A DNA stretch of 64,000 nucleotides, from assembly GCA_026395995.1 (NCBI GenBank), contig JAPLXQ010000010.1, forward strand, positions 69,296-133,295, written 5' to 3'. Both the position numbers and the translations under genes were made by a program. This document shows, piece by piece, positions 38,882 to 40,927 of this stretch; the stretch's first letter is position 1, and every line of letters starts with the position of its first letter. This DNA is from Candidatus Nomurabacteria bacterium. Its GTDB lineage: Bacteria > Patescibacteriota > Minisyncoccia > Phycocordibacterales > UBA9973. Below the pieces are notes generated by a model that was not told the origin of the DNA, did no database searches, and saw nothing but the letters and a program-made list of their open reading frames with translations.

Positions 38882-40927
38882 ATGAATAAGATAGAGGTCA
38901 AAAAAGAAATACAGCAAAGAATAGAAAAATTGCGAAGTGAAATCTCACGCTTACGTAATGCTTATCACGTAGAAAATGCACCGTCTGTCACAGATGATGT
39001 GTATGATTCTTTGTCTCGTGAACTTAAAAGTCTGTTGAAAGAATATCCAGAGTTTAACAATGAAAGTTCTAATGAAAATAGGGTAGCAGGAAAGGCCTTA
39101 GATAAATTTGTGAAAGTGAATCACAAGTCCCGAATGCTTTCTTTGAATGATGTTTTTTCTTTTGAAGAATTGGAAGATTGGGGTAATAGAATGAAAAAAC
39201 TCCTAGTAACAGATAAAGTAAATTATTTTTGTGAAGTTAAGTTTGACGGTCTTGCCGTATCACTGATTTATGAAGATGGAAAATTTTTTCGTGGTGCGAC
39301 ACGAGGCGATGGTTTTATCGGCGAAGATATTACAGAGAATTTAAAAATGATTGAATCTATTCCTTTGAAATTACTCCCTCCCATTCGCCAAGGGGAGGGT
39401 CGGGGTGGGGTGCCTTCCTATGTTGAAGTCCGTGGAGAAGTTTTAATGTCTAAAAAAACATTAATTTCCTTAAATAAGAAAAATGAAAAAGAAGGTGAAA
39501 CTATTTTTGCAAATACTAGAAATGCTGCAGCTGGCAGTGTGCGTCAGCTTGATCCACAACTTGCGAAAGAACGACATTTGGATTTTTCCGCTTATGATGT
39601 TGCTGAAATAAGTGGCATAAATATCGAAACTCATTCAGATAAACATGAATTATTAAAACAACTTGGCTTTCCTGTGGATGAGCATGATGCAATTTGTAAA
39701 AATCTGAGTGAGGTAGAAGATTTTATAAAAAAGTTTGAGAAAATACGACCAGATTTTAAATTTGGTACTGATGGTATTGTCATTTCAGTCGATGATTTAA
39801 AACTTCAAGAAACTCTTGGTGTCGTCGGTAAAGCACCACGATATATGGCTGCTTTTAAATATCCAGCAGAGAGGGCTACAACAACAGTAAAAGATGTGCG
39901 AGTAAATGTCGGCCGTACTGGTGTGCTGACACCGCTTGCAGTATTTGAGCCGACACTTGTCGCTGGTTCTACTGTTTCTAAAGCGACACTTCATAATATA
40001 GAACAAATAGAACGCCTCGATTTACGAATAGGTGACACTGTTGTTATTCAAAAAGCAGGGGATGTTATTCCTGAAGTTGTCGAAGTGTTAGTAAAAATGC
40101 GCACAGGAAAAGAAAAGAAATTTAACATGCCGAAAGTTTGCCCTGCATGTGATACAAAAATAGAAAAGAAAGAAGGACTAGTTGCGAGCTTTTGTCCGAA
40201 TCCAAAATGTAGTGCAAAGAACGAAAGATATTTAGATTTCTTTGTATCTGTTTTTGGTATTTATGAATTGGGTCCAAAAATATTGCGACGCTTTAAAGAC
40301 GAAGGACTAATTACTGATGCTGGAGATATTTTTACTTTACAAAAAGAAGATATTGCGCCACTTGAAAGGTTTGGTGAAAAGTCAGCAGAAAATATAATCA
40401 ATGAAATTAATTTAAAAAAGAAAATTTCACTTTCCAAATTCCTTTGGGCTCTAGGGATTCTCCATGTTGGGGAAGAAACTGCTCGAGATTTGGCTCAAGA
40501 ATTTGGAACATTAGAAAAACTTATTTCAGTTGCTAGGCAAGACCTAGCAAGTTCAGAAGATAAAATCAGCGAGATAGAAAACATCGGTCCTGCTGTATCA
40601 AAGAGTCTGCATAATTATTTCTCTGATACGCATAATATATCTTTTATAGAAAAATTAAAAAAGAATGGTGTCAGTATAGAAAAAGTAGAGAAGAAAAAAG
40701 CTGGTAAATTTAACGGTATGACTTTTGTTCTCACTGGTGCACTCGCTACTATGTCGCGCGAACTCGCAAAAGAAAAAATACTTGCCCATGGTGGTAAAGT
40801 CTCCGGCTCTGTTTCAAAAAATACTTCATATGTTGTAGCAGGGGAAGAAGCCGGCTCTAAACTTACCAATGCACAAAAACTAGGGGTAAAAGTACTTACG
40901 GAGGAGGAATTTTTAAAGATGCTTTAA
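38882..40927 (+). CDS. ligA: NAD-dependent DNA ligase LigA, with in-frame GC-rich palindromic insert
   Basis: [14 protein letters not shown] (KxDG adenylation), OB, Zn-finger Cys4 (CPACDTK ... CPNPKC), HhH and C-terminal BRCT. Confidence 0.85.
39371..39418. repeat. GC-rich palindromic element inside ligA (CTCCCTCCCattcgccaaGGGGAGGG followed by TCGGGGTGGGGTG)
   Basis: Lengthens the loop between IPLKL and EVRGEV by about 7 residues (IRQGEGRGG). Shares GAGGGTCGGGGTGRGGTG with the recG copy. Confidence 0.6.

Follow-up and report, generated by a model that had tools for sequence, protein, structure and literature searches.

The window, by which we mean the whole 64-kb stretch of DNA that was analysed, contains a 681-aa open reading frame on the forward strand (38882–40927) that was identified as LigA, an NAD-dependent DNA ligase, from Pfam matches to DNA_ligase_aden, OB, ZBD, HHH_2 and BRCT. 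At 39374–39412 (+), this gene carries an in-frame block of 39 nt, CTCCCTCCCattcgccaaGGGGAGGGTCGGGGTGGGGTG, which encodes LigA residues 165–177 between IPLKL and (PSYV)EVRGEV. The preliminary description of this DNA, which noted that ligA contains, in frame, one copy of a recurring GC-rich element, was thereby confirmed, although the span given there, 39371–39418, includes a few flanking bases in addition to the element itself. The window holds three copies of the element in its 64 kb; those in ligA and recG had been recognised from the beginning, whereas the third, intergenic copy at 33563–33596 had been missed. The features of the three loci are as follows.

38882..40927, + strand: ligA, host gene; 681-aa ORF for a NAD-dependent DNA ligase, full length with all domains intact; AlphaFold model
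39374..39412, + strand: triplex-motif (BoxC/PIT/TM-type) copy in ligA, sense to ligA; 39 nt, 13 codons
39376..39384, + strand: C-rich arm of the ligA copy, CCCTCCCAT; Watson-Crick partner of the purine arm, hairpin predicted
39391..39399, + strand: purine arm of the ligA copy, AGGGGAGGG; central triplex strand
39400–39402, + strand: loop 2 of the ligA copy, TCG, between the purine arm and the third strand
39403..39411, + strand: third strand of the ligA copy, GGGTGGGGT; mirror repeat of the purine arm, G·G and T·A triads, covariation
12351..14570, − strand: recG, host gene of the sister copy; 739 aa
14070..14108, + strand: sister copy in recG, antisense to recG; 39 nt, TACTCCCTCTCCTTTATAAGGAGAGGGTCGGGGTGAGGT; RecG peptide TSPRPSPYKGEGV
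14074–14082, + strand: C-arm of the recG copy (triplex block)
14088–14096, + strand: purine arm of the recG copy (triplex block)
14100–14108, + strand: third strand of the recG copy (triplex block)
14120..14131, + strand: GGGGGTGAATTC, beside the recG copy; shared with another triplex variant that occupies this site in relative L196
33563..33596, − strand: third copy, intergenic, TCCTCTCCTttccAGGAGAGGGttaGGGTGAGGT; a few nt past the stop codon of a T2SSF/PilC-like gene (32353–33558)

The GC content of the ligA element is 72%, compared with 36% for the ligA gene, and its third-codon-position GC is 0.54, compared with 0.235 in the gene. The linker between IPLKL and EVRGEV, whose growth from about 10 to about 17 aa had been proposed in the preliminary description, is indeed 17 aa long in the window LigA, whereas it comprises 9 aa in E. 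coli LigA (2OWO) and 8 aa (KAPFPSYI) in the closest insert-free relatives. The 39 nt stand in place of 12 nt, so that about 4 loop residues are replaced by 13, with a net gain of 9. The insert is located just upstream of nucleotidyl-transferase motif III in the adenylation domain, and in the AlphaFold model it forms an excursion that is mostly coil. The mean pLDDT is 81 for residues 161–170 and 71 for residues 171–180, with 92 and 95 in the adjoining blocks, and this dip in the model suggests that the insert is a floppy excursion.

The 3′ half of the ligA block is near-identical to the recG element, as originally stated: 21 nt align to 14089–14109 in recG with 2 mismatches, and this 21-nt segment has 2 matches in the window, compared with 0 in 100 dinucleotide-preserving shuffles. 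The term "palindromic" used for the element was incomplete, since it accounts for the hairpin arms but not for the 3′ tail, which mirrors the purine arm and thus yields a three-block intrastrand triplex motif. All three window copies consist of a C-rich arm of ~9 nt, a loop 1 of 3–6 nt, a complementary purine arm, a loop 2 of ~3 nt and a second G-rich arm, with the layouts CCCTCCCAT-tcgcca-AGGGGAGGG-tcg-GGGTGGGGT for ligA, CCCTCTCCT-ttata-AGGAGAGGG-tcg-GGGTGAGGT for recG and TCCTCTCCT-ttcc-AGGAGAGGG-tta-GGGTGAGGT for the intergenic copy. The third arm mirrors the purine arm in antiparallel orientation, and only C-G·G, T-A·T and T-A·A triads (class II purine motif) occur, so that a single strand can form a hairpin together with a purine-motif intramolecular triplex. 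A triplex finder returned 9 triads with at most 1 mismatch in 3/3 window copies (for ligA, 9 triads with 1 mismatch at 39376–39411), and the legitimate triads in the three copies number 7, 8 and 9. The core of the ligA copy (CCCTCCC/GGGAGGG/GGGTGGG) forms 7/7 perfect triads, and the recG copy forms 8/8.

The ligA block is a copy of the pan-bacterial short interspersed repeat BoxC/PIT/TM_ECO, a family that is defined by DNA structure and not by an encoded product. Earlier work on this motif is reportedly that of Bergler and Bachellier in the 1990s and of Hoyne and Maher in 2000. Holder et al. (NAR 2015; PMC4666352) described it as an intrastrand triplex motif that occurs in E. coli and further bacteria, and the same motif appears as HPG1/HPG2, a "G-quadruplex-hairpin-duplex switch" (Kaplan et al., NAR 2016; PMC5100583). 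The published consensus is CCCTCNCCC-N3-6-GGGNGAGGG-N3-GGGNGAGGG, for which triplex formation was detected by NMR in vitro with E. coli sequences (PMC4666352); loop 1 is N3-6 in this pattern and 3–10 nt in our general description of the family. The window copies deviate from the exact published pattern in that their arms end in T/A/T, not in C/G/G (CCT, AGG, GGT), and the ligA copy additionally has an A at C-arm position 8. The T/A/T arm end keeps a legitimate triad and recurs in 22 copies belonging to several phyla; it varies the published pattern while leaving the architecture intact.

When the window copies are aligned with the E. coli copies of types A and B from the flgH-flgG spacer, they correspond block by block to both types, and the 14 invariant columns all fall in the purine arm and the third arm. 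The block GGAGAGGG-TTA-GGGTGAGG of the intergenic copy is identical to E. coli type A. Among ~145 copies, which come from many phyla, three-way covariation was seen at two positions. Stem position c6 of CCCTCYCC varies between T and C, and 135/145 distinct copies have T-A·A or C-G·G there (Fisher p ~1e-28); at triad 9 the counts are 79 for C-G·G, 25 for T-A·T or T-A·A and 0 for T-A·G (p = 3e-22); these few-state covariations could partly reflect sub-family descent rather than selection on structure. In a scan of species-representative genomes, copies occurred in many phyla among the matches listed, and most E. coli genomes carry the motif (median 6 detectable copies), with all copies unannotated and intergenic.

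RNA folding of both strands gave only the hairpin, with an energy that is ordinary relative to shuffles for the ligA copy (z = −0.2) and a z of −2.5 for the antisense strand of the recG copy. Because folding yields the hairpin only and the energy of the ligA copy is not unusual, the conserved 3′ tail is not explained by the Watson-Crick fold alone. At gathering thresholds, Rfam matched only tRNAs in the window and nothing at the element, and in 12 motif-bearing loci of other phyla it matched only C4 antisense RNA, which does not lie at the motif. In E. coli, the triplex was not demonstrated in vivo, as a DMS footprint showed no protection (PMC4666352).

The segment GGGGGTGAATTC at 14120..14131 is probably the leftover of an earlier third strand. 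The GC-rich island at 23686–23725 was considered as a degenerate further copy and was rejected, since it fails to align with the family; in the reverse block order it gives 7 triads with 1 mismatch, which makes it a weak triplex candidate at most. The remaining GC-rich islands of the window are mostly ordinary conserved coding motifs (RecG, UvrD-like, GyrB-like) and not inserted elements.

In 936 kb of Patescibacteria DNA, 49 motifs were found, compared with 0 in each of 5 shuffles. Most of them (36/49) lie in frame inside long ORFs (LigA, RecG, PheS, PheT), and no frame-breaking intragenic copies were seen among them. Both orientations relative to the genes occur, and intergenic copies and inverted pairs were found in the relatives as well. 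The recG site is empty in a relative with a 91% identical RecG (P0123 / L191), which is exactly 13 codons (39 nt) shorter, and is filled in another (P0121, 97%); beside the recG copy, four further codons differ from the empty site. LigA relatives at 79–80% identity are without any insert. In P0001 (95% identical LigA), which alone among the relatives shares the extra residues, these are encoded not by AT-rich DNA, which had been named in the preliminary description as an observation against an inserted element, but by the identical GC-rich 39 nt, with synonymous changes in the flanks. Such filled and empty sites between genomes that are 91–97% identical provide direct evidence of recent insertion, with boundaries and events inferred from diverged relatives because the insertions are not clean (39 nt for 12 nt in ligA; four extra codons at recG).

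No target-site duplication was found in the comparison of filled and empty sites or in the flanks of the 49 copies, and no transposase or defined ends were found for the element at the loci examined. The ends of the element, CTCCC... and ...GAGGT(G), are not mutual inverted repeats as in a MITE, and the GTAG or CGTC tag is absent from the flanks of the 49 copies. No target-site signature emerged from these flanks, which show only a weakly preferred T at −4, a weakly preferred C at −2 and a frequent downstream GAATT; at LigA site A, this GAATT is native coding sequence.

The same LigA loop has been occupied repeatedly. Motif density is 20.2 per 100 kb in ligA and 2.3 elsewhere, an enrichment that is inflated, as are the orientation statistics, because same-site LigA copies in different genomes are not independent. 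On a tree of 121 sequences, the loop underwent at least 27 gains or losses, half of the LigA relatives have some insert in it, and it is filled by several unrelated element families. Where the motif sits in this loop in other frames or orientations, the encoded peptides are unrelated. Between copies at the same LigA site, the stems are 88–97% identical and the loops 54–56%, with 71–76% for the flanking ligA sequence, indicating that the stems are conserved more strongly than the loops.

Copies also reside in phage DNA. Two phage contigs (L200 and L257) hold 5–6 copies each, some of which are in frame in large terminase and Mu-F genes, and five near-identical copies lie in a 7-kb phage contig, suggesting phages as possible vehicles of the repeat. 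A link to DNA-repair genes, prompted by LigA and RecG, was weakened because PheS, PheT, phage terminase and Mu-F genes also carry in-frame copies. Intragenic copies were unreported in the literature searched (CPR/Patescibacteria with MITE or REP, and later work on intrastrand triplex repeats), an absence that is no proof.

Five other explanations of the ligA block were weighed against these data. For the same E. coli motif, Kaplan et al. proposed a G-quadruplex/hairpin reading (PMC5100583); applied here, the G-rich half would fold into a G-quadruplex that competes with the hairpin and regulates ligA transcription or translation. The ligA copy does contain a canonical G-quadruplex motif, GGGGAGGGTCGGGGTGGGG, its G-rich strand is the mRNA strand, and CD evidence exists for hairpin and G-quadruplex forms of the E. 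coli motif (PMC5100583). However, this motif is present in only 1/3 window copies and thus is not the unifying feature: the recG and intergenic copies lack four G3+ tracts and yet obey the triad rule perfectly, covariation of the third arm with the Watson-Crick pair at two positions is needless for a G-quadruplex, copies occur in both orientations relative to genes, and 18 imino signals in the NMR of the E. coli motif were read by the authors as a triplex and not a G-quadruplex (PMC4666352). Such a switch is accordingly improbable. An adaptive protein feature, in which a Gly/Arg/Glu-rich loop is selected for DNA or partner binding by LigA and the likeness between copies is incidental, would fit the position of the insert beside catalytic motif III on the adenylation domain, the presence of some insert in half of the relatives and the high conservation of the stems. 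This reading is very unlikely in view of the constancy of the DNA motif where inserts in the same loop give unrelated peptides by frame or orientation, the occupation of that loop by unrelated element families, the closest relatives with no insert or a different one, the intergenic occurrence of the same DNA in the window and in E. coli, and the pLDDT dip, which suggests a floppy excursion.

A non-autonomous transposon of the REP/RAYT or MITE type, mobilised in trans by a dedicated transposase (e.g., an IS200/IS605-like Y1 enzyme) that recognises the hairpin, is unlikely, although less so than the other four explanations. The size of 35–40 nt, the hairpin, the dispersed multi-copy distribution, the intergenic inverted pairs and the insertion polymorphism are all REP-like, and the five near-identical copies in the 7-kb phage contig look like a burst. 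Conversely, no GTAG/CGTC tag, terminal inverted repeats or target-site duplication were seen, the gene calls at the loci examined included no recognised transposase, BLAST work on the E. coli motif found no transposon association (PMC4666352), and a common mobilising enzyme would be needed across phyla. The block could also be skipped rather than translated, by programmed bypassing or RNA-level removal, as a GC-rich hairpin insert within AT-rich coding sequence with a predicted mRNA hairpin of ~−20 kcal/mol might suggest. Precedents for bypassing are T4 gene 60 and the GC-rich "byp" inserts in AT-rich yeast mitochondrial genes. We consider skipping highly implausible here, since each of the two intragenic window copies measures exactly 39 nt and has no stop codon in the frame of its host gene, long ORFs stay open in 36/49 copies in the relatives, frame-breaking intragenic copies and a stop codon at the take-off site were not seen, and the fold energy of the ligA copy is ordinary (z = −0.2). 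The source is evidently an uncultured genome, and the composition of the block is sharply unlike that of the host gene, so that a chimeric joining of foreign GC-rich reads into an AT-rich contig during assembly or binning has to be considered as well; its probability is negligible, given that the identical ligA insert is present in independent assemblies from different samples (L194 and L195), as is the recG insert (L192 and L193), that the insert is in frame with a length that is a multiple of three, and that dozens of independent metagenome contigs carry members of this family, at many sites.

The ligA block is most probably a BoxC/PIT/TM_ECO copy acting as a selfish, structure-defined mobile repeat that is tolerated in permissive loops. 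On this explanation, the repeats would land in coding DNA in an AT-rich, gene-dense Patescibacteria lineage and would survive only where their length is a multiple of three, the frame is stop-free and the protein offers a permissive surface loop. The 39 nt in ligA would simply be translated, with no role for the repeat in ligase chemistry. We infer that the element is selfish and mobile, that the LigA insert peptide is presumably neutral, and that single-stranded folding matters in vivo. That the stems are so well conserved in an AT-rich genome could mean that the element is useful; such conservation would not be expected of a purely selfish repeat. More tentatively, and with rather less than even confidence, we propose that the BoxC/triplex family is mobile across phyla, with phages among its carriers and without an element-encoded or dedicated transposase, and that in streamlined Patescibacteria it contributes heavily to the in-frame length variation of essential proteins (LigA, RecG, PheS, PheT), particular loops of which would have been hit dozens of times while the stems were kept by selection or gene conversion. 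Replication or repair intermediates might, for instance, capture the single strand in its folded form.

In its 30 years in the literature, the BoxC/PIT/triplex motif has gained neither a function nor a spreading mechanism, nor clear proof of movement. New here are its systematic in-frame residence in essential genes of Patescibacteria, which resembles that of the Rickettsia palindromic elements (RPEs) for a much smaller, pan-bacterial element; the filled and empty sites between genomes 91–97% identical as evidence of recent insertion; the extreme LigA hot spot, reused by several unrelated element families; and the dense copies in phage genomes, including those within the terminase gene. Such insertions would account for much of the odd length variation (661–758 aa) and of the "low-complexity" Gly/Pro-rich loops in proteins of uncultured ultra-small bacteria, and these loops should not be taken as adaptations. 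The copies also lend themselves, as a natural data set, to the question of whether selection acts on the structure of triplex-forming DNA.

Among known systems, RPEs are alike in behaviour only, as in-frame selfish palindromic repeats tolerated in surface loops. They were reportedly described by Ogata et al. in 2000 as selfish elements inserted in frame into essential genes of a reduced, AT-rich genome, in surface loops of the proteins. RPEs, work on which is cited in PMC10969869 and PMC1779305, are ~100–150 bp, Rickettsia-specific and without a triplex third arm, whereas the present element is 39 nt and belongs to a family found across phyla. REP/BIME elements and REPINs, which are mobilised by RAYT transposases (PMC3733652), are likewise GC-rich hairpins of 20–40 nt with high copy number, often in inverted pairs, but they bear GTAG or CGTC tags, lie outside genes and are RAYT-linked, none of which was seen here. 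The Coxiella QMITEs are MITEs that insert into coding regions (PMC5896051). Together with the cyanobacterial repeats, they resemble the present element in being very small, non-autonomous and able to join ORFs, but they show terminal inverted repeats and target duplications, or mutual nesting, neither of which occurs here. Those cyanobacterial sequences are small dispersed repeats, reportedly described by Elhai in 2008.

The closest correspondence is with BoxC/PIT/TM_ECO itself, which shares the three-block architecture, the near-same sequence GGAGAGGG-TTA/TCG-GGGTGAGG, the triad rule, a size of ~35–39 nt, multiple copies in both orientations, intergenic copies, inverted pairs and local instability or turnover at its loci. 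The E. coli motif was reported to be always intergenic, with none within ORFs (PMC4666352, PMC5100583), and to have no link to mobile elements, including phages (PMC4666352). The published surveys covered 262 proteobacterial genomes and not Patescibacteria, to which the present host, with 33% GC, belongs. Intergenic location has been reported for the E. coli copies and does not belong to the structural definition. In the Patescibacteria variant, unlike in E. coli, triad 9 is T-A·T and not C-G·G, and loop 1 is rich in A/T. The variant also lies in frame inside genes in 2/3 window copies and in 36/49 copies in relatives, its sites are filled or empty between genomes at 91–97% identity, and copies are carried by phages.

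The preliminary description had placed in ligA an in-frame, GC-rich palindromic element that expands a linker and whose 3' half resembles an element in recG. The in-frame copy is present, in a window of 33% GC, and represents a triplex motif, consisting of a C-arm, loop 1, a purine arm, loop 2, and a third arm mirroring the purine arm. The copies in the window and their host genes are as follows.

39374-39412, + strand: triplex-motif copy in ligA, CTCCCTCCCattcgccaaGGGGAGGGTCGGGGTGGGGTG, 39 nt, 72% GC
38882-40927, + strand: ligA ORF, 681 aa, with all NAD-dependent DNA ligase LigA domains
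14070-14108, antisense to the gene: triplex-motif copy in recG, encoding TSPRPSPYKGEGV
12351-14570, - strand: recG, host gene of the 14070-14108 copy
33563-33596, - strand: third triplex-motif copy, detected by the general finder and missed in the preliminary description

The ligA copy encodes residues 165-177 in frame, flanked by IPLKL and (PSYV)EVRGEV. Linker expansion was borne out, since alignment with PDB 2OWO gave a loop linker of 17 aa in the window LigA compared to 9 aa in E. coli LigA. In the nearest LigA relatives without the insert, the linker is the 8-aa KAPFPSYI, and the window ligA has 39 nt in place of the 12 nt encoding KAPF. In an AlphaFold2 model built from 82 aligned sequences (mean pLDDT 78.8), residues 165-177 form mostly a coil excursion, with mean pLDDT values of 81 (block 161-170) and 71 (block 171-180), compared to 92 and 95 for the neighbouring blocks. 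The domains and invariant residues are all intact. We infer that residues 165-177 are probably translated and tolerated in LigA.

The resemblance to recG also held: the 21-nt tail of the ligA copy recurs at 14089-14109 with two mismatches, and no recurrence was seen in shuffles (n = 100). Between the two copies, a stem pair changes in a compensatory manner from T:A to C:G, and the tail follows, from A to G. The term palindromic captures the paired stem but is incomplete, as the unit comprises three blocks, including the third arm. The copy at 33563-33596 is intergenic; a T2SSF (PilC-like) gene terminates a few bases before it. Over the purine arm, loop 2, and the third arm, this copy is identical to type A of the motif in E. 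coli.

With each species represented by a single genome, a search for CCCTCYC-N3-12-GRGAGGG-N1-5-GGGTGRGG yielded at least 120 matching stretches, those listed including Bacteroidota, Cyanobacteria, Alpha-, Beta- and Gammaproteobacteria, Chloroflexota, Planctomycetota, Verrucomicrobiota, and others. Three linked positions were T/A/A or C/G/G in 135 of 145 distinct copies (Fisher p ~1e-28 for each pair). When set antiparallel to the purine arm, the tail would make no contacts other than G*G, A*A, and T*A, those of an intramolecular purine-motif triplex. Perfect triads number 7/7 in the ligA copy and 8/8 in the recG copy. Triad 9 exhibited a second, independent three-way covariation (p = 3e-22): with a C-G pair the third base was G in 79 of 81 copies, and with a T-A pair it was T or A in all 25 and G in none. 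T-A*T occupies triad 9 in 13/13 Patescibacteria copies matching the covariation pattern.

The family is already known, under the successive names BoxC, PIT element, and TM_ECO, with the consensus CCCTCNCCC-N3-6-GGGNGAGGG-N3-GGGNGAGGG (PMC4666352, Holder et al. 2015). The same study reported a stable triplex in vitro by NMR and CD, no protection of the E. coli motif in an in vivo DMS footprint, no known function, and an unusual degree of rearrangement of TM_ECO loci between strains. Matches were present in 4523 of 5426 complete E. coli genomes (median 6 places), with no annotated feature beneath the best matches listed. In the flgH-flgG spacer of one E. coli strain, a type A copy (TTA loop) and a type B copy (CCG loop) lie in inverted orientation, both aligning to the window copies in each block. 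No Rfam family matched the motif in the window or in 12 motif-bearing loci from other phyla.

Comparison with relatives revealed filled and empty sites. In an alignment of the query RecG with 120 relatives, a 40-residue linker segment occurs in 65 of the 121. The element is present in the window and in P0121 (97% identical), with a sole difference in loop 2, and is absent from P0123 (91%), whose DNA (locus L191) is shorter by exactly 39 nt; in the best codon alignment, the element lies between ...AAATCC and GGACTT.... P0122 (92%, locus L196) carries a different triplex variant at this site. Four codons upstream of the element also differ from the empty site and contain GGGGGTGAATTC (+ strand), common to the window site and the P0122 variant, which is probably a remnant of an earlier element. 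Directly downstream of recG, L196 (GCA_026396065.1, 12261-13666) has a reverse transcriptase (RVT_1) and a bAvd accessory gene, together resembling a diversity-generating retroelement cassette, for which the window has no counterpart at that position. The flanks of L191 (GCA_026395955.1, 1-3000 and 20647-22175) carry a serine recombinase, an HsdM-type methylase, and an AlwI-type restriction enzyme, a sign that the core is conserved while the mobile or defence genes surrounding it vary.

For LigA, P0001 (95%) matches the window at all 39 nt and shows three synonymous differences in the flanks, and P0005-P0012 (79-80%) are without insert. In P0004 (87%), the motif lies ~12 nt further upstream in another frame, and the conserved P-L-S residues are encoded by the C-arm itself. 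In P0002 and P0003 (87-90%), the place is instead taken by a 70-nt element whose terminal inverted repeats (TIRs) are perfect over 17 bp. This type of element (~70 nt; TIRs CCGGCAAAGAAGAATTC...GAATTCTTCTTTGCCGG), translated as KPAKKNSPAFALGDLEQGTHDSLNSSLP, was seen in the same loop in the ligA of L001 (GCA_026395955.1, ~10480-10560) and also in P0002 and P0015.

Altogether, the segment from IPLxL to EVRGE holds an insert in 52 of 121 LigA sequences. Of these, 37 are translations of the triplex motif, falling into three classes by frame or sequence, 5 are of a different perfect hairpin (GHPMSKWTSDVQV), 3 are of the TIR element, and 7 are others. On a neighbour-joining tree of the 121 sequences with insertions masked, insert presence requires at least 27 changes and insert type 39; with shuffled labels, the mean was 49.7. 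Motif density was 20.2 per 100 kb in ligA versus 2.3 in neighbouring DNA (binomial p = 1e-11, which is optimistic because the copies are not all independent), with clusters just ahead of motif I (NYFCEVK) and just ahead of motif III. LigA lengths range from 661 to 758 aa owing to at least six insertion zones. The GHPMSKWTSDVQV insert, in P0028, P0054, P0064, P0095, and P0117, would correspond, by back-translation, to a near-perfect 16-bp hairpin, GGACATCCGATGTCCA..TGGACATCGGATGTCC. Inserts of a further family, encoding peptides like KNSSALLHPSGGTFRVQNS, follow window residues ~246 and ~431 in P0018, P0021, P0028, P0040, P0061 (two in tandem), and P0070, and their GAATTC-containing ends suggest a palindromic DNA element.

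The general finder (order C-arm, purine arm, mirror arm; at least 7 triads, at most 1 mismatch) was applied to 936 kb, comprising the window, three loci of close LigA relatives, and 67 loci from metagenomes in which a LigA relative is encoded. It detected 49 motifs, and none in each of five shuffles. Thirty-six sit within long frames free of stop codons, with 20 or more codons to either side, and 29 of them are in sense orientation; the hosts are LigA (several sites), RecG, PheS, and PheT.

Other GC-rich spots were observed in the window. The island at 23686-23712 (- strand; GGAGGGG-tct-GGGGAGG-aat-CCTCCGC) has mirror symmetry and precedes a tRNA gene (23887-23975) by ~170 nt. With the block order reversed, it qualifies as a weak candidate for a triplex (7 triads, 1 mismatch; none in 5 shuffles). 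A perfect 17-bp GC-rich hairpin at 18218-18256 (AACTGCAGGGCGGAGGG-gaa-CCCTCCGCCCTGCAGTT; predicted -36.8 kcal/mol), apparently intergenic, may represent a terminator or a further family of repeats. Three islands within ~1.3 kb (2585-3831), in short open frames of 156-175 aa, possibly mark a compositionally foreign segment.

The best-supported interpretation is that a short repeat of the BoxC/PIT/TM type, selfish and defined by its structure, inserted recently in a permissive LigA loop, where it accounts for 13 codons and a net gain of nine residues. An adaptive LigA loop is less well supported, as the peptide at one LigA site, including DPLPTSPLAGGG, varies with frame and orientation while the DNA motif is constant. 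At the same site in diverged genomes, identity is 88-97% in stems, 54-56% in loops, and 71-76% in flanking ligA DNA. The constraint is on the triplex motif at the DNA level, not the peptide level. Kaplan et al. 2016 read the E. coli motif as a G-quadruplex/hairpin switch (PMC5100583); here such a switch is less well supported, since the canonical G-quadruplex motif occurs in only one of the three window copies, that in ligA, while all three follow the triad rule. The selfish repeat is likewise better supported than a REP/RAYT-like element, translational bypass of the ligA block, or an assembly artefact. Neither terminal repeats nor target duplications were found in the flanks of the 49 copies or at the filled and empty sites, and no associated transposase was found among the called genes of the loci examined.

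In the literature searched, we did not find in-frame residence of the triplex motif in essential genes, its T-A*T variant, or hot-spot turnover together with filled and empty sites and phage copies. The mostly intragenic location in Patescibacteria is the opposite of that in E. coli K-12, whose 23 copies are "always located intergenically" (PMC4666352), with zero copies inside any ORF according to Kaplan et al. 2016 (PMC5100583). In the loci L135 (5882-5961), L144 (5818-5897), and L151 (4193-4264), two different variants of the motif are paired in inverted orientation between genes, ~15-20 nt apart, which resembles the type A and type B pairs described for E. coli. For TM_ECO, no link to transposons, phages, or plasmids was found (PMC4666352). 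In contrast, 63 IMG/VR stretches carry the Patescibacteria-type pattern. Two of them, L200 (3300048592_001291; 5 copies in 7.3 kb) and L257 (3300007351_000082; 6 copies in 15 kb), encode large terminase, Mu-type portal, major capsid, and Mu-F proteins and are thereby bona fide phage fragments; within each, all copies lie on the same strand. In L200, the five copies differ only in the loops, and copies reside in frame in the large terminase gene, between the N- and C-terminal domains, and in the Mu-F gene. These phage copies contradict the earlier statement on the E. coli motif and offer a possible route for its horizontal spread.
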